NCBI GenBank assembly: GCA_022072025.1
Contig: JAJVIP010000003.1
Location: forward strand, 1-64,000
Source of the DNA: Elusimicrobiota bacterium
GTDB lineage: Bacteria > Elusimicrobiota > Elusimicrobia > F11
Reading direction: 5' to 3'
DNA length: 64,000 nt
The notes under the pieces are model-generated. The model made no database searches and was not told where the DNA came from. It saw only the letters and a list, made by a program, of their open reading frames with translations. Positions within the stretch are counted from its first letter, which is position 1. The number at the start of each line of letters is the position of its first letter. Of the stretch, positions 19,851-52,909 are shown one piece after another. The translations under genes and the position numbers were made by a program.

Positions 19851-21735
<1,885 letters not shown>

Positions 21736-25373: not shown

Positions 25374-26414
25374 CTATTCTCCATGTTTTAACAAGTACTC
25401 TGGATTAATACATTTGAATGACAGGCGACCAAGATCTGGATCTCGCGTCTCTAAAACTGGGCGGATAACGATTCCCTCTGCCCAAACTTCTGGATTGAGC
25501 TTCGACTTACGAGTAGCCAGGGCGACTAGTTCATCTACGGTACTGGGGAGTTTAAACATAGGATCTACCCATGGTACAGACTTTAATCCCAAATCTATTA
25601 AGATGTCTGCTAAGGTGGGGGAACTAACATACTCTCCAGTTTGCATATCATAAACATTATAAAAAAGGATTCTCTGACCCTTAAGTTTAAGCCTATTGGC
25701 TTGGATACCTTCCCCAATTAGTTCTCCCTGGAGTGCCCAGCGGGAATCTTTTAGTTTTTCTTTGAGTCCCAACTCGTTGGCTACCTTCCAAAAACTGTTT
25801 CCCTCAGACTCTAGGAGGTTGATAGAGCGGGAGCAAACATTTAATTCTCCATCCTTCCAGTATATGGTCACAGAGGATCCATCTACCTTTTCTGTGATAT
25901 AGAAAGTATCAGTTTGATATCTTTCTAGAATCTCTGGACAACCCTGAATTCTAGGCTCATCTGTCTTAGGAATAAAGCTGGGGAATAACCCTTTGGCTAC
26001 GCCAGCTAACTGGGCGGGCATTGGGGGTTCATATTTATGTACGCCAAGAATACCCGTGACATCATCTCCCTCTTGAAGAAAATCTCTTCCAAGAGATTGG
26101 TGGATAACTGTAATGGGTAGACATAATCCTTGGCTAATTTGCCCCCGCAAGCGGATAGTTCTAAGACGGATCCCCTCTTCTTCTGCCCCATCGATTAACA
26201 TTTTTTTGGTACCATTTTTCTTTAAGAACTCATATCTAAAGTCATCGGCGGGCAAGAATGAGTCCACCTCATAATACACACATAAATCCCCAGGTTTGAA
26301 CTCACCCTTCTTTACCACTACATGCCACCCTAGAACAGTAGCCACCTCAATGGCATCTGCTCCCTCAATGGGTTTGATGTCTATAATCTTTTGGACACTA
26401 GCTAGTTTTCTCAT
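25374..26414 (-). CDS. ATP-dependent RNA ligase, DraRnl/Rnl5-like (nick-sealing family)
   Basis: N-terminal KLASVQKIIDIKPIEGADAIEVATVLGWHVVVKKGEFKPGD OB-like domain. Nucleotidyltransferase motif I EKVDGSS, motif IV EGIVIR, motif V FKCINPEY. Confidence 0.6.
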   Translation of the reverse strand: MRKLASVQKIIDIKPIEGADAIEVATVLGWHVVVKKGEFKPGDLCVYYEVDSFLPADDFRYEFLKKNGTKKMLIDGAEEEGIRLRTIRLRGQISQGLCLPITVIHQSLGRDFLQEGDDVTGILGVHKYEPPMPAQLAGVAKGLFPSFIPKTDEPRIQGCPEILERYQTDTFYITEKVDGSSVTIYWKDGELNVCSRSINLLESEGNSFWKVANELGLKEKLKDSRWALQGELIGEGIQANRLKLKGQRILFYNVYDMQTGEYVSSPTLADILIDLGLKSVPWVDPMFKLPSTVDELVALATRKSKLNPEVWAEGIVIRPVLETRDPDLGRLSFKCINPEYLLKHGE

Positions 26415-26415
26415 A

Positions 26416-26631
26416 TTACCCCTCTATTTTATCTCTGGCTTCCATCCATTGATCGGAGTCAGCCTCGGATATTAATACTTGATTGGTAAATCCATTTGCG
26501 TCATGGATTGTCATCCATGGTCCCATGCCCTTAATAGTAGTTCCGATGTCTGCATAGGCATATCTATTAACCTGCCATGCGGGGAGCTGGACTCTTGTGA
26601 TTCCTAGTTTGTATAATTCTTTTAGTGTCAT
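26416..26631 (-). CDS. hypothetical protein
   Basis: 71 aa. Confidence 0.3.
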   Translation of the reverse strand: MTLKELYKLGITRVQLPAWQVNRYAYADIGTTIKGMGPWMTIHDANGFTNQVLISEADSDQWMEARDKIEG

Positions 26632-26679
26632 ATATTCTCCTTAGCCTAACCCCCCATATGGAGGGGCTAGGTAAAAAGA

Positions 26680-27531
26680 CTATTTAAGTGCTGGTAGGTT
26701 CAACAAAGTTGATCCATTTCCAAGCATATAAACTGGTAGTTTACCATCCCATTTCTCAAGATAGATCTTCTGCAAAAGCTCTGGGGAGATTGTCTCTCTC
26801 TGGAGTCTTTGTGCTTCAGCTTGAGCTTGAGCGTCGGTGATTGCCGCTTGTTTGCGGTAGGTCGCCTGCTCTGCCTTATTCTTTTCAGTGTCAACTTTAA
26901 CAAACTCAATCTGCTTTTGGGAGATTGCATCTGTATAATCTTTGTCAAATCCGAGTTCGCGGATCAACACCGAGTCAAGAATAATACCATTTTCTGCTAA
27001 GACTGCCTGTATAGTTTCAAAAATATCCTTTGCTACCTTTTCACGCCCTGTCCCTACATACAATTCTTCAGCCGAGAAATTGGCTGGAGTTGTACGAGCA
27101 ACACTGCGAGTCTGAGCTCGGATAATCTTGTCTACTAGTGTCTGCTCACTACCAAACTTCTCTACCACCCAAGTTGTCTTGGTTGGATCAATTGAGAAAG
27201 TAATGGTGTAGTACACATTCACTGGTTGACCATCTTTGGTGGTTGTATCTACTGGTCCATCTTTATAGTCAGAATTGGAAGTCTTCATGTCTTCTGGCTT
27301 CATGGTTTCGTAGATCAAGAACTTAGTATTAATATACTTTGTTCCTTCTACAAATGGGGTAATCACGGCGGCTCCTGGTTGGAGAACTCTCCCAGTCACG
27401 GCACCCCACCTTGTTACCACCGCCACCTCACCAGCATCAACTGTGCGGAAACCGAGTAATCCTATGATAAGGATAAATACTCCGATCACTCCTAAACCTA
27501 CTATATTTCGTGCGATTTTTTCTGTGTCCAT
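26680..27531 (-). CDS. SPFH / band-7 (prohibitin/HflK-like) membrane protein
   Basis: N-terminal TM helix, then a typical SPFH core (GEVAVVTRWG...PGAAVITPF...) and a coiled-coil Q/A-rich C-terminus. Confidence 0.7.
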   Translation of the reverse strand: MDTEKIARNIVGLGVIGVFILIIGLLGFRTVDAGEVAVVTRWGAVTGRVLQPGAAVITPFVEGTKYINTKFLIYETMKPEDMKTSNSDYKDGPVDTTTKDGQPVNVYYTITFSIDPTKTTWVVEKFGSEQTLVDKIIRAQTRSVARTTPANFSAEELYVGTGREKVAKDIFETIQAVLAENGIILDSVLIRELGFDKDYTDAISQKQIEFVKVDTEKNKAEQATYRKQAAITDAQAQAEAQRLQRETISPELLQKIYLEKWDGKLPVYMLGNGSTLLNLPALK

Positions 27532-27685
27532 ATTATTTTTTCACCTCCTTCTTTTTCTTTTTATCTAATAATTCTTTTTCCTTATCCTTCATTCCTTCTT
27601 GGTAGACGCTTTTCAGCACCCCAATAATGGCTAGGAAGATAAGAAAATCTAAAATAAATATAACTAATCTCATAAGTGCCTCCTA

Positions 27686-28063
27686 TTAAAATGATCTACT
27701 AGCTCCCCCACCAGAGAATACTCCTCCCCCGAATCCTCCGAAGCCACCAAAGGTGGAAGTGCTGGGGGTGCTATGGAATCCTCCGCTACTGAAGAAGCTA
27801 CTGTCGTCATCGTCATCGTCGCTATCAAACCAGGAGCTAACTTTCTCCCTGATTGTGGGAGTTTGTTCGATGTCACATTTTAGACAATATTGCTCTTTGG
27901 TATCTGGGTTAGAGATACGAACAGCTAGGCGTTTGAGGGTTGTAAGATCTCCCTCAGCTACCTGATCTAGATCAAGATTAACCATCTTGTGTCCGCAGTT
28001 TTCGCACTCCACAACCTCTACGGTTTGTTTTTGTAGTTCTATCATTTCTCCTACTTCTATCAT
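27686..28063 (-). CDS. zinc-ribbon protein with acidic linker and Gly-rich C-terminus
   Basis: CENCGH...CLKCD, a DDDDDD run, and a GGFGGFGGGVFSGGG tail resembling the Gly-rich C-termini of TPM-domain (YgcG-like) proteins. Confidence 0.35.
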   Translation of the reverse strand: MIEVGEMIELQKQTVEVVECENCGHKMVNLDLDQVAEGDLTTLKRLAVRISNPDTKEQYCLKCDIEQTPTIREKVSSWFDSDDDDDDSSFFSSGGFHSTPSTSTFGGFGGFGGGVFSGGGASRSF

Positions 28064-28536
28064 TTTACCTCCTCAATTATTGCAGTTACTCCTGATAATA
28101 CTCCCCCATCCCAGTCTGCATTCTTGAGATAAGGAATCACTTTATTGTCGAGGATTCTACCTGCCTCAGCGTCAGTAAGTTTTTCTTCTAGTCCCCTTCC
28201 CACTTCAATCCTAAGTTTGCGGTCAGTAGTAGCGATAAGAAAAATAACTCCATTGTCTTTCCCCTCATATCCTGGCTTCCACGCCTCGGCTAGGTTAATA
28301 GAGTATTCTTCTATGCTCTCTGCCCCCGTGGAGGGGACGGTTACAACGGCTATTTGAGCTTTTTCATCAAACTCTTTGAGCTGATTACTAACCTTAAGCT
28401 CTGTTTCTTCTGAGAGGACATTAGAGGTATCAACCACATAGCCAGTTGGGGAGGGATAGACAGTTTCTGGTAGTTGTATTTGAGTACATCCTCCGAGTAA
28501 TAGTGCTGCAACTAAGACTACTAGTAAGTATTTCAT
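28060..28536 (-). CDS. TPM-domain lipoprotein (DUF477 / TLP18.3-like)
   Basis: Lipobox LLLGGC, then YVVDTSNVLSEETELKVSNQL...IAVVTVPSTG...GVIFLIATTDRKLRIEVGRGLE, typical of TPM domains. Confidence 0.6.
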   Translation of the reverse strand: MKYLLVVLVAALLLGGCTQIQLPETVYPSPTGYVVDTSNVLSEETELKVSNQLKEFDEKAQIAVVTVPSTGAESIEEYSINLAEAWKPGYEGKDNGVIFLIATTDRKLRIEVGRGLEEKLTDAEAGRILDNKVIPYLKNADWDGGVLSGVTAIIEEVK

Positions 28537-29114
28537 TATTTGACCTCCAAGTTAACACTAGGAGCATATTGGGCGTCCTGTGTTTGGATAGTAAATAGTG
28601 GCTTCTCGTCGAAGTTAAACATCCCAGCTAGGAAGTTGGTTGGGAACTTCTTGATATAGATATTAAAGTCTCTGGCGTCCTCATTATAGCGATCTCTGGC
28701 TACAGTGATCCTATTCTCGGTCCCAGCTAGTTCATCCATTAACCCCTGGACAGTTTGATCCGCCTTTAGATTTGGATAGTTTTCCATGATCACCATTAAA
28801 CGAGAGAGAGCTCCTTCAATTTCTCCAGTTGCTTTTATTCTCTCATCTGATCCCTTATTACTATTATCATAGTGAGCACGGGCGTCGGCGATGGCTTTAA
28901 ATACCGCCTGTTCATGAGCCATATACCCTTTAACCGAGTTTGCTAGGTTGGGGATAAGGTCATATCTACGCTGGTATTGGGTTTCTACTTTTGCCCAAGT
29001 AGTAGACACCTCTTCGTTGCGAGTAACCATTGTGTTGTAGGCACCAGAAACCCAGTTAAAAATTATGATTGCGACTAGGGCAATACTCCCTAAAGTTACT
29101 AAAAGTTTATTCAT
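28536..29114 (-). CDS. LemA-family membrane protein
   Basis: N-terminal TM, then YNTMVTRNEEV...W..VETQYQRRYDLIPNL, the LemA signature. Translationally coupled to the TPM gene. Confidence 0.7.
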   Translation of the reverse strand: MNKLLVTLGSIALVAIIIFNWVSGAYNTMVTRNEEVSTTWAKVETQYQRRYDLIPNLANSVKGYMAHEQAVFKAIADARAHYDNSNKGSDERIKATGEIEGALSRLMVIMENYPNLKADQTVQGLMDELAGTENRITVARDRYNEDARDFNIYIKKFPTNFLAGMFNFDEKPLFTIQTQDAQYAPSVNLEVK

Positions 29115-29213
29115 ATACCCCCTATCTAGTTAATAAGTAAATAATAAAGGCGTTAGCAATTGCTATCCCCACAATGGCTCCGCCGAGCCAATTATTAGAG
29201 ATGTCTAATTTTT

Positions 29214-29666
29214 TCATTTATACTCCTTTGTTATACGATCATAAATAACTATTGATCCTGCGACGGCTACATTCAGACAAAATTGTCCTCCTGGTATTTC
29301 AACTACTGTTTTGTGTTCCATATATTCTTCAGGTAGTCCGTAATCTTCTGCCCCCAAAAGGTAGATTGCTCTTTCGGGATGGACGAAATTATGGAGGGGA
29401 CGGGAGATGGAATTTTTTTCAATACATATGACACTGCATCCTTTTGGTATGTGTCTATCAAACTCTGCAAGTGACTCGTATTCAAATAGGGGGATATGTC
29501 CTGTTGCACCGCTTGTATCGGAAGCTTGGCGATTGTATCTTCTACCGATTGTAAAGATGTGATTGGCATTGAAAGCATGTGCTGTCCTCCAGAGTGTCCC
29601 TATATTACTTGTAGTTTTGGGATGATAAATCCCAATTCCGTAGTAGCCTCTCATTTTATAATCCAT
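29214..29666 (-). CDS. SPOUT-class RNA 2'-O-methyltransferase, TrmL-like
   Basis: 150 aa. YGIGIYHPKTTSNIGTLWRTAHAFNANHIF...YLLGAEDYGLPEE...IPGGQFCLNVAVAGSIVIYDR parallels TrmL/CspR (IVLYEPEIPPNTGNIIR...SMNLSNAVSVVVYEA). Confidence 0.6.
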   Translation of the reverse strand: MDYKMRGYYGIGIYHPKTTSNIGTLWRTAHAFNANHIFTIGRRYNRQASDTSGATGHIPLFEYESLAEFDRHIPKGCSVICIEKNSISRPLHNFVHPERAIYLLGAEDYGLPEEYMEHKTVVEIPGGQFCLNVAVAGSIVIYDRITKEYK

Positions 29667-30174
29667 TTATGGCGGCAAAGATGGCGGAGGCCACTGCTAC
29701 TGACATAATAATTGTTAGTGTGAGCTTGAGAAAGTCTTCTGCCTCCCAGCGGTAAAATGGTTTGTGGGACACTGATTTTTTGAGCCATCTACCAACCTTA
29801 TATACAACTGGTTCGGCTTTGATCCCGCCCTGTACATAGTCTCTCATCTTCCCGATAGTCATATCAGAGGCAAGTTCTTGGCGTTTCTTTACCAAATCTT
29901 TGACTTTAATCTTGTCAATATCTCTGTCGCTCATCCCCCCGACTACTTTGAAGAAGCGGGAGTTTTCTGCAATCTGATCTAGGACACTTTGCTTCTCGTC
30001 CCTGTCCGTAGACTGCATTTGAGTTGGATCGTAGATTTGTAGTTCTCCTGACATATTTCTCCTTTTTATTTTTATTGGTTCTATTGTTTTTATATCTTCT
30101 TCATCTTCTAGCCATTGAGCTGATGGTCTGTCTTCCCAATCGTCGTCATAATACTGGTGCATTAGAGCGGGCAT
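29656..30174 (-). CDS. hypothetical C-terminally membrane-anchored protein
   Basis: 172 aa with a C-terminal TM helix. Confidence 0.3.
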   Translation of the reverse strand: MPALMHQYYDDDWEDRPSAQWLEDEEDIKTIEPIKIKRRNMSGELQIYDPTQMQSTDRDEKQSVLDQIAENSRFFKVVGGMSDRDIDKIKVKDLVKKRQELASDMTIGKMRDYVQGGIKAEPVVYKVGRWLKKSVSHKPFYRWEAEDFLKLTLTIIMSVAVASAIFAAINGL

Positions 30175-30180
30175 ATTGGT

Positions 30181-30579
30181 TTACTTTTTAATTTGTTTAA
30201 CTAACTCAACAGCCTCCAGGATAGCCTTATATTCTGGATTGATTAGGTATGGTAAGGCAGAGTTTAAGAACTCTAATCCCTTCGAGCCAGCCCAAAATCC
30301 CCCCGCGATGAAAATTGCATAGAGGATATATTTGTCCACGGAGTGGATGTCTTCGCTCTTACTTACTTTGCGGATAATACGATAAACAATGGCTGTTAAA
30401 AGGAAAAACCAAATCGAGGTTACTAAATATTGAATTCCGATTACTACCTGTTGTTTAACCAACACGGCATATAGGTGAGACACTACATCTCCAGCGACCT
30501 GTGCTAGGGCGGTAAGAGTAGCTCCAATTCTATCTGAAAGATCGGTGATAACTGATCCTGCTGTTTCAATGAATGTCAT
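30181..30579 (-). CDS. hypothetical integral membrane protein
   Basis: 132 aa with 3 predicted TM helices. Confidence 0.3.
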   Translation of the reverse strand: MTFIETAGSVITDLSDRIGATLTALAQVAGDVVSHLYAVLVKQQVVIGIQYLVTSIWFFLLTAIVYRIIRKVSKSEDIHSVDKYILYAIFIAGGFWAGSKGLEFLNSALPYLINPEYKAILEAVELVKQIKK

Positions 30580-30608
30580 ATTTCTCCTATCAATCTAAAT
30601 ATAATTAT

Positions 30609-30637
30609 ATTATATCACTCTTGTTTGGTTTTGTCAA
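30609..30637 (-). promoter_or_regulatory. sigma70 promoter TTGACA-17-TATAAT (minus strand)
   Basis: Plus-strand tgtcaa 30632-30637 and attata 30609-30614. Confidence 0.5.
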
Positions 30638-30769
30638 GCCACTCTAGTACTTCGATTACCTTGTCTAGAGTATAGTTTTGAATTTCATCAGCCCGAGATC
30701 TCCCAACGGGATTTTTCATTTTTAAAATGGTTTCTTTTATCTCTTCAATTTTTAACATATAAATAGGGG

Positions 30770-31060
30770 CGGCAAGCCAGACCCAGCTTCGTTCTTGCGA
30801 ACTTTCATGTGCGGCGTTTCACAAATGACTACTAACACTTTTCCCAAGAGCCTTTTAGTGACTCAAGGTAGTAATATTCATGTCCTCGTCAAGTTATCTT
30901 ACGATACGCAGTCGGGACCGCAGGGGGGTCGAGGTGTATATCGTTTCAACCATCGCCTTGTTTGCTTGCGGAACATTAAAGGCTCCGATTCTAACGGATT
31001 TTACCCCCAAATAATATTGAGGGCTTCGTGCCTATCCCGATATTCCCACACGCCCCTATT
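30770..31060 (-). ncRNA. about 290-nt GC-enriched noncoding element with complementary ends (GGGGCG...CGCCCC); unknown structured RNA candidate
   Basis: No credible ORF on either strand (stops are dense on the - strand; the + strand ORF 30795..31070 is Cys-rich and low-complexity). A G-U wobble (CCCUC/GGGGG) supports minus-strand RNA. Several local hairpins (UCCG-UUAGAAU-CGGA, CGUG...CACG). Confidence 0.3.
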
Positions 31061-31066
31061 TAGTTG

Positions 31067-31477
31067 TTAAAACTTCTTAAACATGTCATCCATGTTCTTC
31101 ATGGTTTTATCTAGGTTCTTCATGGCGTTATCTAAACTTTTCATCCCAGCATCAAGTCCGTCCATCCCCGCTTTCATACCTGCTTTACCCACTTCTATTG
31201 CCCTATCATACTCTGGGGTTCCCTTCTCCAACTTCTTCCCATTAACCCACACCTCATCATTAATCCTTATTCTGCTAGTCCCACTAGTAAAAATCCTGGT
31301 TCTGTTTTGTTCTTGTTTTTTTTCATACTCTTTTACCTGTCTATCTACCTCATCCCAATCCATACCCAATTTAAATTCTCTCCTCAATTCGTCAAACATA
31401 TCCGAGATATAATGCCCACTGAAAAGGTATTTAAAAAATTTGATGATTAATCCACCTAGTTTTTCTATCATTTGCAC
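31067..31477 (-). CDS. hypothetical protein
   Basis: 136 aa with a repeated AGM..GLDAGMK motif. Confidence 0.3.
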   Translation of the reverse strand: MQMIEKLGGLIIKFFKYLFSGHYISDMFDELRREFKLGMDWDEVDRQVKEYEKKQEQNRTRIFTSGTSRIRINDEVWVNGKKLEKGTPEYDRAIEVGKAGMKAGMDGLDAGMKSLDNAMKNLDKTMKNMDDMFKKF

Positions 31478-31740
31478 TCCACCTTTGGTTGAGAGTAACC
31501 ATTAACTTGTTCTATATTAAACGCTTTTATCCCCGCTGATCCGCAGATTTTATCTGAAGCCAACATCCATTGAGTTGTTTTATCTTTATTCTCTGGTTCT
31601 TCTACAGTGATCTTAGTACACTCTCCGTTTTCTCCGATTAAAATTCTTTCGTGATTATATCTGGCGACTAGCACTAGTCCCCCAATAATTATAATAAGCA
31701 TAACAAAAAAGGTTATCTTTACAAATGTATCATCTCTCAT
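31468..31740 (-). CDS. small membrane-anchored protein
   Basis: 90 aa with an N-terminal TM helix. Confidence 0.3.
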   Translation of the reverse strand: MRDDTFVKITFFVMLIIIIGGLVLVARYNHERILIGENGECTKITVEEPENKDKTTQWMLASDKICGSAGIKAFNIEQVNGYSQPKVECK

Positions 31741-31936
31741 TTTTTGTTCTCCTTTTTGCCAATCTTACCAATCGTTTGGCGGGTAATAATAAATTGTTTT
31801 GCCCCGTGGAGAAAAATTCCTTCTAAAAAGAAGGGAACAAATTCAAATATTACTAAGCTCAAATAACTAATCCAGTAATCTAATTTATTATTAGATTTGA
31901 TTACCCATCCGTTGATATTCTCGTCGTAGAAATACA

Positions 31937-32641
31937 TTATCCCTCCTCCTTTATAAGATGTTGTTCTATATACTGTGGAGCTTGATTAAATCTTGGGATA
32001 TGGAGATCAATCTCCCAGTTGTTATAGAATTCGCTCCTTACTACACAAGATCCCCGCTTTAAGTGATCCTCTACATCATTCCAGTTCAGATTTTTGGCGT
32101 GGATTAAATCATGAAGCTTCTGCGAATCTTGTCCAAGAAGATCTTTATGAGAGTATAGACTTTGAGCGAGCATTTGAAGAGAATTTCTTTCTGCGTCCTG
32201 TTGCCTCCATAGGAAGTAGTTGTTAACCTCGTCTTCTGGCAACACAAATACTCTCGCATCAAAAATAGCCTCTCTCCCCATAAATACCGTAAGGGCAGCT
32301 GAAGCATAACCAGCTGAAACAGATACTATCTTTTGGATCTCGTTTCCAAACCACGGCTGACTATCAAACTTTTTATAGTTGTGGAGTAGGAGAGAAATCT
32401 CATCGCTTTGAATGTAGGCGAGTTCAACTCCTTGGAGTTTTTCACAGAGCCTCCTTGCCACTTCTTGCATGTGGGTGGTAAAGCCTAAATCATATGGCTT
32501 CTGAGCCTTATTAAGTAGGGTATGAAAAGCTTTGCCGTCTAAGCGGATAATTACTGGTAGTCGCAGGGGAAGTCTCGTCAGAAAGGGCGATTCATAATTT
32601 TCTTTCATGCGGTTGCCAAGGGATTTCATTTTCTTACGCAC
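31937..32641 (-). CDS. Thg1-like protein (tRNA-His guanylyltransferase family, 3'-5' polymerase)
   Basis: VIIRLDGKAFHTLLNKAQKPYD...MQEVA...ELAYIQSDEISLLL matches the Thg1 active-site region (RxDGxxFH, SDEIS). Confidence 0.75.
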   Translation of the reverse strand: MRKKMKSLGNRMKENYESPFLTRLPLRLPVIIRLDGKAFHTLLNKAQKPYDLGFTTHMQEVARRLCEKLQGVELAYIQSDEISLLLHNYKKFDSQPWFGNEIQKIVSVSAGYASAALTVFMGREAIFDARVFVLPEDEVNNYFLWRQQDAERNSLQMLAQSLYSHKDLLGQDSQKLHDLIHAKNLNWNDVEDHLKRGSCVVRSEFYNNWEIDLHIPRFNQAPQYIEQHLIKEEG

Positions 32642-32691
32642 TCCAAATTTTTTAAATCTATCTTGTATTATACCATATACCCACTAGATAG

Positions 32692-33093
32692 TCAAGGCTT
32701 TAGACTCGAACCACGGGGAGTAATTTTGATCTCTTTATACGGCATGATATCTCCTAAAGTTCTGCTCTGTTTTTTGCCAAATCTCCCCTCTAGGGCGTAA
32801 CAGGCGAGGATTTCTAGAGCATGATGAGTAGAACAACAAACACAAGAATCCTTACATAGGTGTCCTACAGCTCCACCCCCAGGTGGTAACTTGGTCAACT
32901 CTACCTCACTTTTTGGTTGAAGATATACCTTCCCAGCATCCCAATCAAACCCAATATAAACATCTTTAATCTCTGTCCATTTTGTCCCCGTTACTGGGTT
33001 ATGACTCCCCCCAGAAAATCCAGACAGACTTAAACAAACCTCATCCTCTGGGTTGGCATGAGATAGTTTAGCGATTAAACTCTTAACCTTCAT
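32692..33093 (-). CDS. hypothetical Cys-rich protein
   Basis: 133 aa. Confidence 0.3.
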   Translation of the reverse strand: MKVKSLIAKLSHANPEDEVCLSLSGFSGGSHNPVTGTKWTEIKDVYIGFDWDAGKVYLQPKSEVELTKLPPGGGAVGHLCKDSCVCCSTHHALEILACYALEGRFGKKQSRTLGDIMPYKEIKITPRGSSLKP

Positions 33094-33240
33094 CTTCTTC
33101 CTTTTCTATTTCTTCTTCAAAACTGATTACTACCTCTGGACGGAATAAACTACAGCGGATTACTATCTCGTCTATTGTTTCGTACTCCCCAATGAGAGTA
33201 ACCATTCCATCCCCCCGCTGATCTGTGGCATACATTTTGA

Positions 33241-33828
33241 TCATTTTTCTCCTGGAGCATATCCCAAATTAACTTCGGGATGAACCTTTAATGATTGTCC
33301 CACCCATAGAGAGCTCAAAAGCTTAATAAGTTGGTCCCTAGTGGCTTCGTCTTTTTTAATATAACAAACTGTCATGTGTGGCATATATCCAGAGAAGGTA
33401 TCGATGTGTGGGAGGAACTGGAGGCGAGAATGTCCCTCGAGCAATTTCTCGTCTACCTCAATGTGAGCCACAATACAATAGTAGGGTTCATCCTCATAGG
33501 GCGACTCAAAAAACCCAATGTCCTGAATTTTAACTTCGTCAATACTCCAATCCTTTAACACGGCATGAACCTGGTCGGCCCAAGTATGGGCATTTTCCAT
33601 AAGACCGTAAAGGAGAGTAACATGGGCATTCTTTCCTGCTACCCAACCCTTAATCCATTTGCGATCCTCATTTTGGGCGTAGTACAACATCTCTCCATCG
33701 CCCATCCCGTCTATACTCAACATAGAATCTAGTGGTTCTAGATCTAACATTACACATCCTAATCGATCAACATTTACATTTAAATCTTTATATATACCTT
33801 CGAACATGTGAGAGTTAAGTTGTGGCAT
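33241..33828 (-). CDS. 2H-phosphoesterase superfamily protein (LigT/ThpR-like 2',3'-cyclic phosphodiesterase)
   Basis: Two HxTx motifs, NAHVTLLYG and MPHMTVCYI, about 85 residues apart. This is the defining signature of the 2H fold. Confidence 0.55.
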   Translation of the reverse strand: MPQLNSHMFEGIYKDLNVNVDRLGCVMLDLEPLDSMLSIDGMGDGEMLYYAQNEDRKWIKGWVAGKNAHVTLLYGLMENAHTWADQVHAVLKDWSIDEVKIQDIGFFESPYEDEPYYCIVAHIEVDEKLLEGHSRLQFLPHIDTFSGYMPHMTVCYIKKDEATRDQLIKLLSSLWVGQSLKVHPEVNLGYAPGEK

Positions 33829-34146
33829 CTTTATCCTTTTGTTGAGCTAAGTATAGTTTCATGTGTTTGTGACACAACTGCTTATTATACGCCTTGCGTG
33901 GGCGAGCCTTAGCCCTACAATGACACTTCTCACAATGATGACCACTAAGTTTCATTATCTACCTCCCCACAAAAGCTCCCACCATTCTACTAGCGGCGAT
34001 TTTTTATCTACTTCTTTTACCAACCTTTCAATCGCTACTCTAACCATATCTTTGTCCCACTTACCACCAACTTTGGTTTGTATTATATAGCCATTCTTTG
34101 TGTTCTCTTTGGTGAGGGTGATACTTGCTTTCATGTAGAGATCTCC

Positions 34147-34872
34147 TTAAAAGAGGCGAACATGGTCTTTGCGAGCTTTGAAGTTGATTATCTCTTCTAG
34201 CTGGCGAAGGTAGTCAGATTTAGTGTTCATTCTGACCAGTTGTCTACCATGTACTGCCAATTTGTGTTTGAGGTTGGCAAAAGAGACGGCTCCAGATTCT
34301 TTAAGCTGGATAACAGCAGTAATGAATGATCTGTTCCTTCTTACCACCGCATCAGCAAACTCTGAAAATGCGTCTACCCATTGCATAACCCCATCAGCAT
34401 ATTCGGCGTATTTAATTTTGAACTTACCGCTTTTAATATAATCTTTGTTGCTAGTTCCCCCGACATTAGCGGTTGGTCCAAACATCATTAGACTTCCAGC
34501 TAGTCCATAGGAAATCCCCCACTTCTTTTTAAATTCTTGGAGCTCTATATAGTTTTTGTTACCCAGTTCAATATAACTATTAACAAAATCATCATAAGAC
34601 CACGACTTGGCGGATGTGTTTAGCTTTTGGACAATATCTAGGTTTCCATCGGTTACAACATAAGAAACTGGGACACCAAGCTGTTTGGCGGCCTCTAGGC
34701 GGTGTTGTCCATCAATAACTAATCCATTTTGGTTAACAATAATAGGATTAGATTCTAAGAGATTATTTTTGGCAATGCTTTGAACTAACGATTTAACATG
34801 GTTGGGTTGAAGATCGCGGTTGCCCCGCATGTGAGTGAACTGATCATATTTGGTAGTGCTTTTAATATTCAT
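34147..34872 (-). CDS. ParB-like nuclease domain protein
   Basis: IIVNQNGLVIDGQHRLEAAKQLGVPV is a ParB/Sulfiredoxin-type N-terminal domain. Confidence 0.55.
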   Translation of the reverse strand: MNIKSTTKYDQFTHMRGNRDLQPNHVKSLVQSIAKNNLLESNPIIVNQNGLVIDGQHRLEAAKQLGVPVSYVVTDGNLDIVQKLNTSAKSWSYDDFVNSYIELGNKNYIELQEFKKKWGISYGLAGSLMMFGPTANVGGTSNKDYIKSGKFKIKYAEYADGVMQWVDAFSEFADAVVRRNRSFITAVIQLKESGAVSFANLKHKLAVHGRQLVRMNTKSDYLRQLEEIINFKARKDHVRLF

Positions 34873-34904
34873 ATCTATCCTTTATATTATATAACAATTA
34901 ACAT

Positions 34905-34933
34905 ATTATATCATACTATTATGGTAATGTCAA
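34905..34933 (-). promoter_or_regulatory. sigma70 promoter TTGACA-17-TATAAT (minus strand)
   Basis: Plus-strand tgtcaa 34928-34933 and attata 34905-34910. Confidence 0.55.
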
Positions 34934-35794
34934 CTAGAAATCACCGTAGTCAACTTGTAGACAAGTTAGCCCCAGCGATCTCCACATATCAACCACCTGT
35001 TGGCGATCATCTAAAACAAATAGGACATTATATTTTCCCTTAATCTCAGCGTCATAAATTTCTTTTTTAATAATATTGTCGGTGCGATGATCCCCAGTTT
35101 TTCTCATAAAGAGGGAGATACGATCATCTAAAACAGAATGTTTGGCTAACCAGCGAACTGTTGGTTCACGATCTTTATCCTCTCTTCCAGAAAGATAGAT
35201 CGGGCGGACCCATTGTTTAGCATAATATGTTTTGAGAATATTTATTATTGGTTCGTTTGGCAAATCGTTCTCGCAAGTGGATGCGTCATAAGGATCACGA
35301 CCATTCCCTAGTGCGATGGTCCCATCTAGGTCACAAATGATAACTGTCGCCAGAGCAGGATCGAATGTGGGGCGTTCTACGGCTCTAAATTCTAGTTGAC
35401 GAGCCATCCTTCGGATCACCTTACTACCGACTGAATTTGGGCGGAGCAGATCCCTCTCTATACATGTTTCAACGGGGACATTGGTAAAGTCTTGAGTTTC
35501 AACCTCAGCATTATATTTGGCGGCAATTCTCCACATAGTATTTTTATGTTTACTATGTAGATTTGTATCATCCACAATTATGTCATGACCGCCCTTTAGA
35601 GATTCTTCTACAATAAAATCACGAACTTTCAAAACAAATTCTTCCCGCCCCTTTGAATGTACACCGACATGAAGCATGTCCCGCAAACTATCTTTATTAA
35701 CTCTAACTGTGTTGGGGTTTTGGGTTTGGTACTCTCTCGCCCAAGTTGTTTTACCAGAACCTGGAAGTCCTTTTGTCAATATAATCTTATTCAT
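34934..35794 (-). CDS. pnkp: polynucleotide 5'-kinase / 3'-phosphatase (T4 Pnkp-like)
   Basis: N-terminal P-loop kinase (GLPGSGKTT) and C-terminal HAD phosphatase (ICDLDGTIA, DxDGT motif I). Same domain order as T4 Pnkp. Confidence 0.8.
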   Translation of the reverse strand: MNKIILTKGLPGSGKTTWAREYQTQNPNTVRVNKDSLRDMLHVGVHSKGREEFVLKVRDFIVEESLKGGHDIIVDDTNLHSKHKNTMWRIAAKYNAEVETQDFTNVPVETCIERDLLRPNSVGSKVIRRMARQLEFRAVERPTFDPALATVIICDLDGTIALGNGRDPYDASTCENDLPNEPIINILKTYYAKQWVRPIYLSGREDKDREPTVRWLAKHSVLDDRISLFMRKTGDHRTDNIIKKEIYDAEIKGKYNVLFVLDDRQQVVDMWRSLGLTCLQVDYGDF

Positions 35795-35826
35795 AATAAG
35801 TATTATATACTATGAATAGGATTTTG

Positions 35827-36189
35827 TCAATACTTAACCTCTTCTATCTTTCCACAATACTGACACATTTTCTTAGTTGCTTTTTTGGTTATAGTCTCTG
35901 GATTTGTATTTTGATTTGGTCCACCCCCGCCAGCATTGGGATAATACCCACCCCCACTTCCCCCCGCTACCGTGCCAGTATAGGAATACCCCCCTGGGGT
36001 ATATCTAGTCTCTGTCCACTCCACAATTAACCACAAATGACCACCATCTTTCCCCACAATCTTATTCATGGCATCTCTGGCGGGATCGTCACATCGCAAA
36101 TTATTATTAGTCATGTTCAGGATTTTGTTTCTCCCAGTAGGCTTTAATCCTTTCGGGTAGATTATACTCCCAATGGATATGATCGCCAA
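35827..36189 (-). CDS. hypothetical Gly-rich protein
   Basis: 120 aa. May be partly spurious; overlaps the next ORF. Confidence 0.2.
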   Translation of the reverse strand: MAIISIGSIIYPKGLKPTGRNKILNMTNNNLRCDDPARDAMNKIVGKDGGHLWLIVEWTETRYTPGGYSYTGTVAGGSGGGYYPNAGGGGPNQNTNPETITKKATKKMCQYCGKIEEVKY

Positions 36190-36517
36190 TTTGGGTTCGC
36201 AAATAGGTAAAAGTACAAGCGGGACATTTTATCATTTTTTCTAATTTTTCTACGCCATCTTTATTATTTGCTGTGACCTCAATATAAGAGGGGGTTAGGC
36301 TATTTTTTGAGGAGCTTGGTTTAAGAGCTTCAATTAGTGAATCCATAACTTTTATTTTATCCCAATCTGCGGGAGCCCAAGTCCGACCACATAATCGGCA
36401 TTCACGATTGGGATTCATGGTGCAGTGTCTTTCGTGGCGAGACATGTGGGAAGCACTCAGTCCCTTTTTATTCTTACAAAATTCACAATAGTAAACTTTT
36501 TTAGTCACCGTTTTCAT
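36107..36517 (-). CDS. zinc-finger protein
   Basis: CEFC...HERHC...CRLCG...CPAC motifs. Confidence 0.3.
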   Translation of the reverse strand: MKTVTKKVYYCEFCKNKKGLSASHMSRHERHCTMNPNRECRLCGRTWAPADWDKIKVMDSLIEALKPSSSKNSLTPSYIEVTANNKDGVEKLEKMIKCPACTFTYLRTQIGDHIHWEYNLPERIKAYWEKQNPEHD

Positions 36518-36676
36518 GGGCAGGATCTCCTATTTTGCTTAATAAATCTTCTCGTTTACCATTGCTATCTGGATATGTTATTAGTCCTCCATATCTTTTT
36601 GTGAGATCACGATAATTCAAAGCCCCCAATAAGAAGCCTACTACAAACCCAATAAAAAAAATAATTTCGGGACTAC

Positions 36677-37747
36677 TCATGCTACCGCCTCAGATTGTTG
36701 TTTAAATGGTCGCTCTGCCACGGGGCGAAGCTTCTTCCATATCATATGTGCATAGGGACGCTTATCAAGCATAGAGAATAAGATTGGGGCATACTCTCCA
36801 TCTTTCATAAACTCCATAGCTAGTGTCTTGCGATCTTTCACTCCACTACCAGTAGTGGTTATAAAAAGTGTTTTAGCTATTTGATCAATGGTATTATATT
36901 GGAGAATAAGGTTGTCGGCCGTATCTTTTACCCAGTGGTAAAACTCTTCTGGGACTCTTTCCATCAACTCTCCGAGGTCTTGCCCGTTACGAAGGAGATC
37001 CCAAATAGTCTTTTTATTCACCCCAGTTAATAGTCTGTGTAGGCGTACATATTCGTCAAACTTAAACTTAGTCCTCATCCCCGATTGGAAGCGGATAACA
37101 AACCCTTCACTGTCATTTTTTTGGATTGCCTTAATCTTTTCTAGATCATTTAACCCATCATATCTGCGTACTATTTTCATTTTCCCCGAAAACGCCATCT
37201 GTAGTGTCTCATATGGTACTTCTACACCATCCCTAGTGTTAAAGGCTGTGAGAAGATATAGATCTCTATCTAATCCATAATTAACTACAATCCTATTTTC
37301 TGGATAGATAATTTCGAACAAGTATGTGTATTCTGGGTTAAATTCTACTTGAGAATATTTTTCCTGAAGCATTTTATTCGCCTCAATAGCTTGGTCACTC
37401 TCAAAAGATCCCCGCGTGGCGATAAAGGGTTTCCCCCCAACAAAGTACATAATCCCAAGCGATCCATCCATCTTCTCAAATACTTCGAATGGCTCTGTAA
37501 GTGGTAATTTGGGTAAACCGTTATTTTCTTGATGTTCAGATAAGTTCCAGAACTTCTGGAATGGCCTGGCAACAACCTGGTTGGAAGCGTCCATAATAAG
37601 ACCCCGACAGGTAATTGTCTCGGGAGTCCAAACTTTATCAAATTGAGCTTTTTGGGAATAGTTATAAATCCACAATTCTTCGGTGGGGTGTTTTGTTTTA
37701 TCTATATACTTCTGGTCTATCAACTCTTGTAGTCGAGCGAGATCCAT
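36677..37747 (-). CDS. ATP-dependent RNA ligase (Rnl1/RnlA-like)
   Basis: Motif I EKMDGSLG (KxDG), motif IV EGFVIR, motif V KFKFDEY. 356 aa. Confidence 0.6.
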   Translation of the reverse strand: MDLARLQELIDQKYIDKTKHPTEELWIYNYSQKAQFDKVWTPETITCRGLIMDASNQVVARPFQKFWNLSEHQENNGLPKLPLTEPFEVFEKMDGSLGIMYFVGGKPFIATRGSFESDQAIEANKMLQEKYSQVEFNPEYTYLFEIIYPENRIVVNYGLDRDLYLLTAFNTRDGVEVPYETLQMAFSGKMKIVRRYDGLNDLEKIKAIQKNDSEGFVIRFQSGMRTKFKFDEYVRLHRLLTGVNKKTIWDLLRNGQDLGELMERVPEEFYHWVKDTADNLILQYNTIDQIAKTLFITTTGSGVKDRKTLAMEFMKDGEYAPILFSMLDKRPYAHMIWKKLRPVAERPFKQQSEAVA

Positions 37748-37885
37748 AGTTACTCCTGTGATTGGGTGGGCAAGTCTTTTTCTTCGGTGGCAATTTTGGG
37801 TACTGGAGTCCCGACAATGGCTTGAGTAGAAGCCTCCATAGCCATCCTTTTCCCGTGGATAGCAGAGTCGTGGGCAAAAATCCTT

Positions 37886-38371
37886 TTACCCCTTCTTACT
37901 TGCTGTCTTTTCTTTTCGTGACGAAACTTTTTTTGGGCTTTGCTTAGCATGTTCGCCTCCATATTTGTCTATAAATTCTATTAATGCCTTGATATCTTCT
38001 CTGGGGATTAATGCCTCGGCATGATATACCCTACCCTTGAATAGTTGTTTAATCCAGTGCCAAAAAGTTGATGGTTGATCGTAGGCAGAAATCCATATAT
38101 CTCTAGGTTCATCTTTCCAGTGTGAGAATTCTATAAAACAGGGGTGCCCACAATCACATCTAATAATAAACTTCTTTTGATCTATCATATTAGTCCCATA
38201 AATTATCAAAATATTTGGCAAATAATTGTAATCCTTCTTGTTCAATTTTTTGGAGTTTATCCATTTCTTTGTGATGCTTAATCCAGAAATCATGCTTTTC
38301 TTTTTCAGATAGAGAATCAAAGTTTTCTGGAAGCTTGGGATACATTTCTCCCAACTCATAAGAAATCTCAA
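37886..38371 (-). CDS. hypothetical protein
   Basis: 161 aa. Overlaps ORF 38190..38678; one of the two may be mis-phased. Confidence 0.25.
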   Translation of the reverse strand: MRFLMSWEKCIPSFQKTLILYLKKKSMISGLSITKKWINSKKLNKKDYNYLPNILIIYGTNMIDQKKFIIRCDCGHPCFIEFSHWKDEPRDIWISAYDQPSTFWHWIKQLFKGRVYHAEALIPREDIKALIEFIDKYGGEHAKQSPKKVSSRKEKTASKKG

Positions 38372-38678
38372 ATCCGCGGATCATTTTATCCATTGTCTTG
38401 TCCCAGTCTTTTACGCCCTTTTTAAAGTCTTTGGCTGTTTTTCCTGCAAACTCACAAGGAATCCCGTGTTTATTTTCTTTGAGGAAGCGAAGAGCATCTG
38501 GCATCCAAAGAGAGAGATGATAATCAAGCGACCAGGTATCACAGTCAGCCCATCCCCGAATTCCTCTTTGTATAATGGCGCGGAGATCTTTATACAAGTC
38601 ACGAACAAACTCCCACGGGCGGAGAATATAATACTTCCAGCTATAAGTGAGATAACACCATCCTAAAAATTTACTCAT
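38190..38678 (-). CDS. hypothetical protein
   Basis: 162 aa, W-rich. Promoter TTGTCA-18-TATAAT upstream at about 38683-38712. Confidence 0.3.
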   Translation of the reverse strand: MSKFLGWCYLTYSWKYYILRPWEFVRDLYKDLRAIIQRGIRGWADCDTWSLDYHLSLWMPDALRFLKENKHGIPCEFAGKTAKDFKKGVKDWDKTMDKMIRGFEISYELGEMYPKLPENFDSLSEKEKHDFWIKHHKEMDKLQKIEQEGLQLFAKYFDNLWD

Positions 38679-39473
38679 ATATTGTATTATATCACACTAC
38701 CATTGGGTCTGACAATAGTTTCCATCACATTTAATTTAAGTGCTTCCTGCTTAGCCAAGTTAAAACTATTCGGTTGGATTTTGAATTCAACTGGGAAAGA
38801 GATGGTTGGATTATATCTTTTACCAGTATAGTTAACTGTAGATTTTACTGGAGAATAATCTGGTTGATCGCTAATAAATAATTTATACCCCCTGGGGGTA
38901 TCGGCAATTTTTATATAGGCGCGGATAGTAATTGGTTCTTCTGGAATTAGGTTTATTTGGCTCATATTATTCTGGTAGTAACCATTGGCTATCTATAATT
39001 AATTGTGCTTGTTTCAGCTGGTCCTCGGTTGGCTCCATCTCCTCTGCCACCTTGTCAGCATGACTGTGAGAGCCCCAGTCGCCTTTGTGCTGGGATTTGT
39101 CCTCAGCATCTCTGCCTTCATCTGATTCTTTTTCCTTCGACTTTGGTGCCATACACCAATTTTAATACTAAGTAGTATATTTTGGCATTACCCCTCTGAT
39201 TAATTTTAACTGGGCTTCCCCCACCCCATTAATTCTTAAAATATCTTTATCTTTTGCCACTCTTACAGATCTGATTGAACTAAATCCAGAATTAAAAAGA
39301 TAATTAGTAACTTTTGTGGGGAGATGTGTTGCAGACAGAGGGGCTAGATCGTGGATTCTAATGGGATAATATTTTTGTACGAGAGGGATTAAAAATTCAA
39401 ATCCAGCCAAAACATCTTGTTTAGATGAAAGATCTACTTCTAAAATATTTGTTATTTTCATATTACCCCCGTA

Positions 39474-39794
39474 TTAACTATTAGCTATTTCCAATAGCAC
39501 ATCGGCGTGACACGGCTTGTCTAGGGGACACCAACAGGCCAGGTTGAATCCCCTTAAATCTCTTTTCGCCGCCTGAGAGCGGGTACATGATGTGTCATAT
39601 GCTTGGTCGTGTACTCCTGACATAAGCCATTCTTTATATTTAGCTATCGCCCCTCCCCTACCCAAAACCATAATTCCATTAATTCTATCTCCTTCTTTAT
39701 ATGGGTTTCCCCAGAAGGTTGGTCTTCCTACATAAATTGTATTTGGTGGCATTTTCCACCCCTTAGTGCGTTTACGCTGTACTCGAATCGGCAT
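39474..39794 (-). CDS. DUF4326-like protein
   Basis: YVGRPTFWGNPY...KYKEWL...LRGFNLACWCPLDKPCHADVLLE matches the DUF4326 pattern (GNPf...CwC...CHadvL). Confidence 0.4.
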   Translation of the reverse strand: MPIRVQRKRTKGWKMPPNTIYVGRPTFWGNPYKEGDRINGIMVLGRGGAIAKYKEWLMSGVHDQAYDTSCTRSQAAKRDLRGFNLACWCPLDKPCHADVLLEIANS

Positions 39795-40578
39795 GGATCA
39801 TCTCCATAACTTCATATAATAATTTATTTATTTTAATTCGATTATTTGTATCTGGGATTGTAGAAATTTGATACTCATATTCAAATTTTTGGAAGAGTTG
39901 TTCGGCGAGAGCTTTAACCTGATCTAAACTATATTCTCCGAGCTTAATATCTATTAATTCTTGTCTATCTTCAGTCCGATACACAATCGGAGCACCATCT
40001 CGGAGAAATTCTATCCCCATTTTGAGTAGTCTAACAAGATGGGAAGCATTTTTACTATCATATCCGATTAGATCTACCATTTTTTTTCTCTTTTCGCCCA
40101 TATATCCCCGATATGGGTTAGATTCATTCATTCTTTTGAGCTGAGCCCTAGCATATCCCCCAAAACAGTTGTAAACTAGGTTTTTAGAAACAAAAAGGTG
40201 GCGGTTATCAATCACATACTGCCAAACGGGGGAGATATTAATATAATCCTCTTTCCGCATATAAAGTGTATTGATTACATTGGGGTTCATCCCGCTCAAA
40301 AGCACAAACATTTTGTGGAGCTCATATCCCACCTCATCAATCGCATCTTGTTTAACTTCGTATGTTTCTTTGGCATGGGCATACCCCTCTAGGGTATAGT
40401 AATATTGTTTGGGATAAGCGAATACGGAAATGGTGTCTATGTCATCTGTCCCCCATTTTTCCTCTGGTGGAACATATAAGTTGTGAGCGTGAGATCCCCG
40501 ATATGCAAGCATAAGGGGTATTTTCTCAAACATTTTATTATAAATGCTTTCTGGTTTGCCCAATCTTTCCCTGACCAT
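39772..40578 (-). CDS. Pol-beta superfamily nucleotidyltransferase
   Basis: YRGSHAHNLYVPPEEKWGTDDIDTISV fits the hG[GS]x(9-13)Dh[DE]h signature. 268 aa. Confidence 0.4.
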   Translation of the reverse strand: MVRERLGKPESIYNKMFEKIPLMLAYRGSHAHNLYVPPEEKWGTDDIDTISVFAYPKQYYYTLEGYAHAKETYEVKQDAIDEVGYELHKMFVLLSGMNPNVINTLYMRKEDYINISPVWQYVIDNRHLFVSKNLVYNCFGGYARAQLKRMNESNPYRGYMGEKRKKMVDLIGYDSKNASHLVRLLKMGIEFLRDGAPIVYRTEDRQELIDIKLGEYSLDQVKALAEQLFQKFEYEYQISTIPDTNNRIKINKLLYEVMEMIHADSSTA

Positions 40579-52838: not shown

Positions 52839-52909
52839 GGCCAGCTAGTTCAGTGGTAGAACATCGGTGTTACATACCGACTATGAGGGTTCGATTCCTT
52901 CGCAGGCCA
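52839..52909 (+). tRNA. tRNA-Val (anticodon UAC)
   Basis: Manual cloverleaf: acceptor GGCCAGC/GCAGGCC (one A-A mismatch), D-arm GUUC-AGUGGUA-GAAC, anticodon stem UCGGU/ACCGA with loop GUUACAU, T-arm GAGGG-UUCGAUU-CCUUC. Confidence 0.55.

Follow-up and report, generated by a model that had tools for sequence, protein, structure and literature searches.

RNA repair genes on the leftward arm of an uncultured phage genome

The DNA analyzed here is a stretch of 64,000 nucleotides, positions 1 to 64,000 of contig JAJVIP010000003.1, called the window below. Its minus strand carries, between about 17.9 and 50.3 kb, a noncontiguous set of genes whose predicted products seal, heal, extend, or otherwise handle damaged RNA. 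An earlier note made from the letters alone had named eight of these open reading frames (ORFs); all eight are present in the ORF list at exactly the coordinates claimed, and all eight exceed the curated Pfam cutoff for the family named. The catalytic motifs the note had quoted (KxDG, the paired HxTx motifs, RLDGKAFH/SDEIS, and GLPGSGKTT with DLDGT) are likewise found in the translations. Our direct observations concern which genes are present, the families they belong to, their catalytic motifs, the promoters, and the partial sets that recur in other phages. Judged by profiles and motifs, the center of the set is a T4-like core of Pnkp and Rnl1, extended by an Rnl5-type ligase, an RlaP nucleotidyltransferase, and a bacterial-type Thg1-like protein (TLP).

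The predicted Pnkp (34934..35794; this and the other repair genes are on the minus strand) has an N-terminal P-loop kinase domain (Pfam AAA_33, residues 5 to 135) followed by a C-terminal HAD phosphatase domain (HAD_PNKP, residues 151 to 286, 8e-48), with GLPGSGKTT and DLDGT in the translation, which is the architecture expected of a T4-type enzyme. Among PDB sequences it matches Pnkp1 (4xrp, 2e-53) and, over its full length, T4 Pnkp (1ltq, 2e-41). Pnkp1, the closest of these, belongs to a Pnkp1-Rnl-Hen1 complex. The predicted Rnl1-type RNA ligase (36677..37747) is assigned by its profile and lysine motif: it scores 73 bits against Pfam RNA_lig_T4_1 (4e-20; cutoff, 28.3), carries KMDG, and matches T4 Rnl1 (2c5u, 3e-18) over residues 23 to 314 of 356, although its 94.4 bits against the NCBIfam T4 RnlA equivalog fall below that model's cutoff of 242.

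The second ligase (25374..26414) appears to be of the Rnl5 type (DraRnl/NgrRnl), with an N-terminal OB domain (Pfam PHA02142 OB, residues 4 to 101, 2e-37) ahead of the nucleotidyltransferase domain (RNA_ligase, residues 170 to 335, 3e-23). It passes the NCBIfam equivalog TIGR02306, RNA_lig_DRB0094 (188 bits; cutoff, 151), matches the Naegleria RNA ligase NgrRnl over its full length (5cot, 2e-68), and carries KVDG. The predicted Pol-beta nucleotidyltransferase (39772..40578) belongs by profile to RlaP, the RNA-ligase-associated Pol-beta family (PF10127, 1e-11, 45.1 bits; cutoff, 23). It has the GS and DxD motifs of the fold (RGSHAH...DDIDT), and the family association is seen in its surroundings as well, in that its gene lies 2 kb from that for Rnl1 and its relatives adjoin Thg1 or SpoU genes. 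RlaP enzymes append a nucleotide or two at the 3'-OH of RNA that is damaged (PMC12776372), so the general 3'-end rebuilding that the earlier note had assigned to this protein must be narrowed to that activity. The next gene (39474..39794) begins within the last 23 nucleotides of the RlaP gene, the sole translational coupling among the named genes; its predicted product is a DUF4326 protein (PF14216, 2e-24, 86.2 bits; cutoff, 25).

The remaining member of the extended core lies at 31937..32641 and is a predicted 3'-5' polymerase. It matches Pfam Thg1 (8e-24, 84.5 bits), and the RLDGKAFH and SDEIS motifs supply what would be the catalytic carboxylates of a Thg1 palm domain (the D of RxDG and the DE of SDE). 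Its likely start is the ATG at 32629, downstream of a promoter at 32667-32695; gene callers run on the source contig favor the resulting 230-residue form, just as they favor shorter starts for the SpoU-family protein (146 residues) and the 2H protein (188 residues) discussed below. The match to the Bacillus thuringiensis TLP (4kgk, 1e-54) is far better than that to human Thg1 (3otb, 2e-8), and a third structure, 3wbz, annotated "likely histidyl tRNA-specific guanylyltransferase," matches at 3e-11. These comparisons place the protein, as a prediction, in the bacterial TLP subgroup and not with the eukaryotic enzymes that add G-1. Homologues occur in 162 phage records.

That the enzyme instead adds G-1 to tRNA-His and has no part in 5'-end repair is a reading suggested by the tRNA-His(GUG) gene in the same phage and by the tRNA-His guanylyltransferase annotation of homologues in many phage records. 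However, the phage tRNA-His gene (54563-54638, plus strand) itself encodes G-1 opposite C73, along with its 3' CCA. In this arrangement, the bacterial one, RNase P leaves G-1 in place, and the Thg1-like enzyme is therefore unneeded for ordinary tRNA-His maturation. We set it aside as a required supplier of G-1, and, given also its closeness to the B. thuringiensis TLP, we regard the G-1 role as unlikely. The preferred role is 5'-end repair: TLPs are described in PMC4820378 as carrying out template-dependent nucleotide addition at the 5' end of truncated tRNAs.

Phage origin of the sequence

Head protease, SU10-like capsid protein, tail tube, tape measure, and Sipho_tail proteins are encoded at 315-17000 on the plus strand, and the sequence is therefore that of a tailed phage, as the earlier note had supposed. 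Nearly all of its genes are labeled hypothetical in GenBank (MCG3203938-MCG3203984), where identical proteins are held under an "Elusimicrobia bacterium" metagenome-assembled genome (MAG) on a contig of 103,985 bp; of the toolkit proteins looked up there, all but the SPOUT enzyme are annotated as hypothetical. Independent Logan assemblies contain a contig of 103,872 bp with a different break point and another of 64,473 bp. We read the two long contigs, broken at different places, as a circularly permuted genome of roughly 104 kb, of which the window is about 60%, siphovirus-like and of an uncultured lineage. A cellular origin for these genes, on an Elusimicrobia chromosome as the binning implies, is hardly credible beside the structural genes, the permuted contigs, and the lack of any cellular housekeeping genes in what we saw. 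The binning is no evidence for the identity of the host.

The lineage of the phage is not placeable, since tblastn with the capsid protein gave no match in the phage collection searched (50,697 records); megablast with the 15-kb repair region gave no nucleotide match in the same records. We examined about 84 kb of the genome, that is, the window plus 10 kb of flank on each side; an exact-pattern scan of genome contigs for the remainder gave no match. No further RNA-repair genes were seen in the flanks, and RtcB, Rnl2, a CCA-adding enzyme, KptA, and PTH2 were not seen anywhere in the 84 kb. Other genes of the window encode a GroEL-type chaperonin (20137-21732), an ERF single-strand annealing protein (22376-23095), a C5 cytosine DNA methyltransferase (57733-59055), and an amidase_3 endolysin candidate (56316-57218).

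Partial sets recur on other viral contigs

Pairs and larger subsets of the repair genes recur within 10 kb on viral contigs whose proteins are just 27 to 60% identical to those of the window. The closest parallel is contig L039 (Logan SRR29078149_57361, 101,898 bp), where Rnl5 (51% identity), Rnl1 (38%), Pnkp (47%), SpoU (60%), and RlaP genes lie inside 10 kb, followed by LemA and TPM genes. It differs from the window in that Thg1, 2H, DUF4326, and Ro60 are absent from the 20 kb seen and in that Fic, DUF4258, and TerF/TerD/TerC genes are added; the ORF after RlaP was considered as a divergent DUF4326 and rejected, there being no similarity. On this contig, LemA and TPM (13822-15398) follow downstream of the SPOUT gene at a distance of about 3.4 kb, past TerF/TerD/TerC.

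Smaller combinations are more widely spread. RlaP occurs with Thg1 on contigs L027 and L007 and with SpoU on L028, while Thg1 is found with Rnl5 on L006, with Pnkp on L009 and L017, and with DUF4326 on L013, L014, and L015. On viral contig L024, genes for Band7, RlaP, and DUF4326 lie together, the last two in the same order as in the window; Band7 there adjoins RlaP. These recurring neighborhoods support the view that Pnkp, both ligases, RlaP, and the Thg1-like protein serve a common function. The functional link is weaker for the SPOUT methylase and the 2H protein.

Among the phage records, a concatenated tblastn query of nine proteins, with records ranked by their best single place, matched at most four of the nine parts there in any record. 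The best record, Gordonia phage Trax (MK967378; 45% coverage in one place), has PNK, an RNA ligase, an RlaP-like nucleotidyltransferase, a Ro-like protein, and a tRNA cluster in about 9 kb; it differs in having only those four of the nine protein parts, at identities of 28 to 33%, and in its added NAD-salvage genes. Vibrio phage phiKT1024, the sole whole genome checked, has two of the nine parts. Genus names common to the Thg1 and Ro60 matches had suggested, misleadingly, that it might carry both; it was dropped, its genome having only Ro60, GroEL, and Rnl1.

The 2H, SPOUT, and DUF4326 proteins

Three of the eight proteins have a less certain place in RNA repair. One is the predicted 2H phosphoesterase (33241..33828), whose membership in the superfamily the earlier note had called correctly: it matches Pfam 2_5_RNA_ligase2 (1e-7, 32.6 bits) and carries AHVTL and PHMTV, and the corresponding H62-x-T64 and H144-x-T146 are invariant across 31 aligned sequences from among 316 homologues. 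A search of PDB sequences gave no match. The AlphaFold model (mean predicted local distance difference test score, 92.2) has the duplicated alpha/beta fold expected of a 2H enzyme, and every one of its top 43 Foldseek matches is a 2H enzyme.

For the role in cyclic-phosphate removal that the note had added to this assignment, the model suggests a rival. Its best structural match is the penguinpox cyclic GMP-AMP (cGAMP) phosphodiesterase (PDE), with a template modeling (TM) score of 0.72, followed by Usb1, a Burkholderia phage PDE, plant CPDase, Acb1 (TM, 0.38 to 0.44), and E. coli LigT (TM, 0.42 to 0.45). In its modeled structure, the protein appears to be no less like viral cyclic-nucleotide PDEs than like RNA end-healing enzymes. 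The use of LigT-like enzymes by viruses to counter cyclic-nucleotide immune signaling is established (PMC11410667), and a role against host signaling competes seriously with RNA end healing for this protein. The two homologue contexts that we read are divided. In one (L034), a bacterial-type Pnkp (Metallophos and PNKP_ligase) lies about 4 kb upstream of the 2H gene; the other (L033) has no RNA-repair neighbor.

These observations introduce the principal alternative for the arm as a whole, namely, that only the T4-like core (Pnkp, Rnl1, and perhaps RlaP and Rnl5) is devoted to RNA repair, the rest being separate counter-defense pathways that share an early arm. The 2H enzyme would then destroy cyclic-nucleotide signals as Acb1 does, DUF4326 would process ADP-ribose-derived signals, and SPOUT methylation would be unrelated to repair. 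For 2H, the structural matches to the penguinpox, Burkholderia phage, and Acb1 enzymes and the L033 context favor this alternative, and the L034 context counts against it. For DUF4326, the family call of the earlier note holds, and published work predicts that such proteins process phosphates on ADP-ribose derivatives and not RNA (PMC9503650). Against separating this protein from repair are the overlap of its gene with RlaP in the window and its position after RlaP in L024.

The third protein (29214..29666) is a predicted minimal RNA 2'-O-methyltransferase of the SPOUT (SpoU/TrmH) class. The earlier note had called it TrmL-like. Membership in the wider SpoU/SPOUT family is clear (Pfam SpoU_methylase, 1e-19, 71.3 bits), but the TrmL equivalog TIGR00185 scores 22.6 bits against a cutoff of 190.6, and RlmB scores higher (33.7), also far below its own cutoff. 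In the PDB, the TARBP1 methyltransferase domain (7e-7) comes ahead of TrmL (8e-6), and no PHROG family matched the protein. Its 3,037 homologues are mostly on phage or mobile-element contigs; some automatic pipelines name relatives TrmL, and others name them "guanosine 2'-O-methyltransferase."

This bears on the linear pathway that the earlier note had drawn, in which repair ends in TrmL-type wobble 2'-O-methylation that immunizes tRNA-Leu(UAA). The phage does encode tRNA-Leu(UAA), along with a methylase of TrmL size whose relatives pipelines call TrmL, and its Pnkp is closest to Pnkp1 (4xrp), which belongs to a Pnkp1-Rnl-Hen1 complex. Bacterial Pnkp/Hen1 provides a precedent for repair-coupled 2'-O-methylation, as cited in PMC12776372. 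Set against this are the failure of the TrmL equivalog, the higher RlmB score, the TARBP1 domain leading in the PDB, and the other pipelines' broader name; moreover, nothing ties the SPOUT enzyme to tRNA-Leu. The TrmL call is unsupported, the wobble methylation of tRNA-Leu(UAA) is speculation, and we consider the linear pathway very unlikely to be correct.

A different partnership can be imagined, in which a SPOUT clade specific to phages and mobile elements works with Pnkp, Rnl1, Rnl5, and RlaP and methylates the repaired junction or the nuclease target site, blocking recleavage; in the same joint reading, RlaP and DUF4326, translationally coupled as they are, could contribute an end-processing step that is new. 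We put this forward as a rather improbable but consequential idea. If true, it would make the SPOUT partnership a phage counterpart of the bacterial Pnkp-Hen1 strategy to repair and immunize, with an unrelated methylase fold.

Ro60, Y-like RNAs, tRNAs, and tmRNA

Beyond the eight ORFs, the earlier note's Ro60 homologue stands: the protein at 17899..19323 has the predicted TROVE (1e-19) and vWA_Ro60 (7e-9) domains of the family and matches the TROVE protein 9l5y in the PDB (1e-23). Homologues are present in 100 phage records, the closest (51% identity) in the huge uncultured phage LR745206.1 (635 kb); scanning viral contigs with the single Ro60 sequence turned up no relatives.

The 528-nucleotide gap 5' of Ro60 opens with a perfect sigma-70 promoter (19826-19854). 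From there, a predicted Y-RNA-like array (19350..19854, minus strand), absent from the earlier note and delineated by Rfam, folding, and a shared motif, comprises three tandem stem-closed units and ends at the Ro60 ribosome-binding site. All three units, A (about 19745-19835; fold z-score, -4.0), B (19610-19741; -2.6), and C (about 19350-19600; -4.3), carry the motif GAGUUACUUCG, and their terminal-stem halves are repeated. Unit B is YrlA-like, with a tRNA-like module that includes the T-arm GGUUAGAUUCC and a D-arm-like hairpin. It matches the full Rfam YrlA model at 32.3 bits, short of that model's gathering score, 69 (E, 0.004 over the whole window and 4e-5 locally).

LR745206.1 has a gap of similar size 5' of its Ro60 gene (L001, 19420-20005) with two copies of GAGAUACUUCG, a motif related to that of the window units, and its terminal stems differ from those of the window yet, by eye, still pair. 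A YrlA search near the Ro60 genes of LR745206.1 and Vibrio phage phiKT1024 gave no match; in Gordonia phage Trax, a sub-threshold YrlA match of 44 bits lies directly 5' of the Ro gene. The Y-like elements of the window are probably RNA partners of the phage Ro60. The arrangement recalls the bacterial Rsr(Ro60)/YrlA ribonucleoprotein, in which a TROVE-plus-vWA protein is likewise encoded beside a tRNA-like Y RNA. The phage locus differs from the bacterial one in its YrlA match, which is below the Rfam gathering score, in having three tandem units where bacteria have one or two, and in having neither rtcB nor rtcA nearby.

The count of 22 tRNAs in the earlier note becomes 21 with ARAGORN, in two arrays also supported by Rfam. 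Twelve are on the plus strand at 52839..55160 (Val, Leu twice, Ile twice, Arg, Lys twice, Glu twice, Cys, and His), and nine are on the minus strand at 60304..61424 (Ser twice, Tyr, Gln twice, Arg, Asn, Asp, and Met). The tRNAs for Lys, Glu, Gln, Tyr, His, Asn, Asp, and Arg are classical targets of anticodon nucleases. Between tRNA-His and tRNA-Glu lies an ORF (54643-55098, plus strand) with a Pfam match to cytidylyltransferase-like (HxGH) proteins, and a similar gene is found near a SPOUT homologue on contig L042 and in Vibrio phage phiKT1024. Beside the second array, about 54 nucleotides (60244-60297) match a miRNA-precursor model whichever strand is read. The double match suggests an almost perfect hairpin or palindrome, which may be a terminator or processing signal.

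The tmRNA that had been claimed is present at 62051..62434 on the plus strand, missed by ARAGORN and detected over the full length of Rfam RF00023 (74.6 bits; gathering score, 47). The two claimed metallophosphoesterases are on unequal footing. The calcineurin-like protein at 59506..60096 (plus strand) has a Pfam Metallophos match (29.5 bits) with DHH and GNHD motifs and is a possible candidate for a 3'-end healing enzyme; that at 16288-17271 is identified by a PHROG match and GDxH/GDxxD motifs only.

Promoters and organization of the arm

The repair genes are not one operon and have several separate strong promoters. If one mismatch is allowed, TTGACA-N17-TATAAT is matched at 17 sites in the window, 11 of them perfect, where shuffled sequence averages 0.84, and 7 of the 11 perfect promoters have TG 1 nucleotide upstream of the -10 hexamer (extended -10). 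Promoters stand directly 5' of Pnkp (perfect, 35802-35830), the ParB-like gene, Thg1, ORF 30181-30579, ORF 40813-41292, and the Ro60-adjacent gap. Examples of the sites, besides that at 35802-35830, are 23117-23145, 30609-30637, 34905-34933, 41324-41352, 44174-44202, 46562-46590, and 47797-47825 on the minus strand and 57219-57247 and 62643-62671 on the plus strand.

From these consensus sigma-70 promoters, we infer that the arm consists of short transcription units read by the host polymerase and expressed early; phage early genes are typically read by that polymerase. The promoters suggest dependence on a host sigma-70-type polymerase, which may help to narrow the host.

Interspersed with the repair genes are those for membrane proteins of the SPFH/Band7, TPM, and LemA types, for a ParB-like nuclease, and for zinc-ribbon proteins, along with many ORFs without a family. 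The SPFH/Band7, TPM-domain, and LemA genes form a trio at 26680-29114 (minus strand), between the Rnl5 and SPOUT genes. The ParB-like nuclease-domain protein (34147-34872, minus strand; DGQHR motif, phrog_12305) is encoded between 2H and Pnkp behind its own perfect promoter, and a 43%-identical homologue occurs on contig L033 (1010-1462), 8.5 kb from the 2H homologue there.

A proposed repair mechanism and its principal alternative

Taken together, these results make it probable, in our judgment, that the leftward arm of this phage of about 104 kb is an early counter-defense arsenal with a genuine multienzyme RNA-repair core. In the mechanism we propose, Pnkp would remove the 3' phosphate and phosphorylate the 5' end at a break, RlaP would put back at the 3'-OH the one or two nucleotides lost on the 3' side of the break, and Rnl1 would seal breaks in tRNA loops. 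The Rnl5 ligase would seal nicks in duplex regions, and the Thg1-like enzyme would refill 5'-truncated acceptor stems with the 3' strand as template. In parallel, the phage's 21 tRNAs would make up for depleted species, its tmRNA would free ribosomes that had stalled on damaged RNA, and its Ro60, together with the Y-like RNAs encoded beside it, would deal with misfolded or damaged RNA.

The other three proteins are plausible members. The 2H esterase might open cyclic phosphates or, alternatively, destroy cyclic-nucleotide immune signals; DUF4326 might dephosphorylate ADP-ribose or RNA-derived products; and the SPOUT enzyme might 2'-O-methylate some RNA position. Support for the mechanism comes from the nearest solved relatives, T4 Pnkp, Pnkp1, T4 Rnl1, NgrRnl, and the B. 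thuringiensis TLP, which are those named for the proposed activities. The same logic is described for large phages (PMC7824862), and we count this in favor of the proposed mechanism.

Several points weigh on the other side. Every biochemical step is inferred from established family biochemistry, and the order of steps is inferred too. The repair genes are scattered among about 35 ORFs and have separate promoters, which weakens the case for their coregulation as a single pathway. The 2H protein has a cGAMP PDE as its best structural match, and the SPOUT clade has RNA-repair neighbors in just three of the seven contexts examined.

The separate promoters, the frequent absence of repair genes around the SPOUT clade, and the predicted ADP-ribose chemistry of DUF4326 also add to the case for a repair role confined to the T4-like core, and we see that narrower reading as quite possible, if somewhat short of an even chance. 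For the SPOUT enzyme, the evidence against it is contig L039, where the gene shares 10 kb with Rnl5, Rnl1, RlaP, and Pnkp. The broader reading of an arsenal built around a multienzyme repair core remains the one that we prefer.

Relation to known phage repair systems

Phage T4, whose Pnkp and Rnl1 act against the PrrC anticodon nuclease, shares with the window phage the kinase-then-HAD architecture of Pnkp, an Rnl1-family ligase, and tRNAs of its own. The earlier note had said that T4 uses only those two enzymes to reverse anticodon-nuclease damage; T4 itself also has an RlaP-family gene (marked in the preprint PMC12776372) and encodes the 2H enzyme Acb1 (PMC11410667). What the window phage adds relative to T4 is Rnl5, the Thg1-like protein, Ro60 with Y-like RNAs, tmRNA, the SPOUT protein, and DUF4326; it is also siphovirus-like, with a capsid that has no detectable similarity in the phage collection. 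Aeromonas T4-like phages (44RR2.8t and Aes508) share rnlA, a DRB0094-family (Rnl5) ligase, and pseT within 6.5 kb, and the matched place holds those three parts only.

Close precedents in kind are found among jumbo phages. Sets in which phages bring together tRNAs, RtcB/Rnl1/Rnl2, Ro/TROVE, PNK-HAD, 2H, RlaP, a CCA enzyme, Thg1, and PTH2 are described by Iyer et al. (2021; PMC7824862), who cite Burroughs and Aravind (2016) as the underlying survey of such sets. These complements resemble that of the window in their many tRNAs, multiple ATP-dependent RNA ligases, PNK-HAD, 2H, RlaP, and sporadic Thg1 and Ro/TROVE. They differ in that the window phage, at about 104 kb, is not a jumbo phage, and RtcB, Rnl2, the CCA-adding enzyme, KptA, and PTH2 were unseen in the 84 kb examined. 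The window phage also has Rnl5 and a SPOUT methylase, the latter a protein with no occurrence in PMC7824862.

In view of these sets, and of Thg1 in 162 and Ro60 in 100 phage records, the earlier suggestion that the repertoire is more elaborate than any phage system that the note could name and may be undescribed was overstated. The exact combination of genes may well be unreported. Toolkits of this kind have been reported from large phages before, and the window is a rich, unusually complete new example of them. Mildly new are the siphovirus-like, non-jumbo genome of about 104 kb that houses it, the recurring SPOUT methylase, the RlaP-DUF4326 coupling, and the three tandem Y-like RNAs.

The finding leaves unchanged the known picture in which large phages counter tRNA-targeting defenses by means of repair enzymes and spare tRNAs. 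Within that picture, this is among the fullest sets for RNA repair and translation protection in a mid-sized phage, with nine protein families, candidate Y RNAs, a tmRNA, and 21 tRNAs, in a lineage that has no cultured or annotated relatives; in GenBank the set sits unrecognized inside a bacterial MAG. It offers compact material for testing the joint action of Rnl5, the Thg1-like enzyme, and RlaP on cleaved tRNA, the coupling of a SPOUT methylase to repair, and the role in infection of a phage Ro60 with multiple Y-like RNAs.

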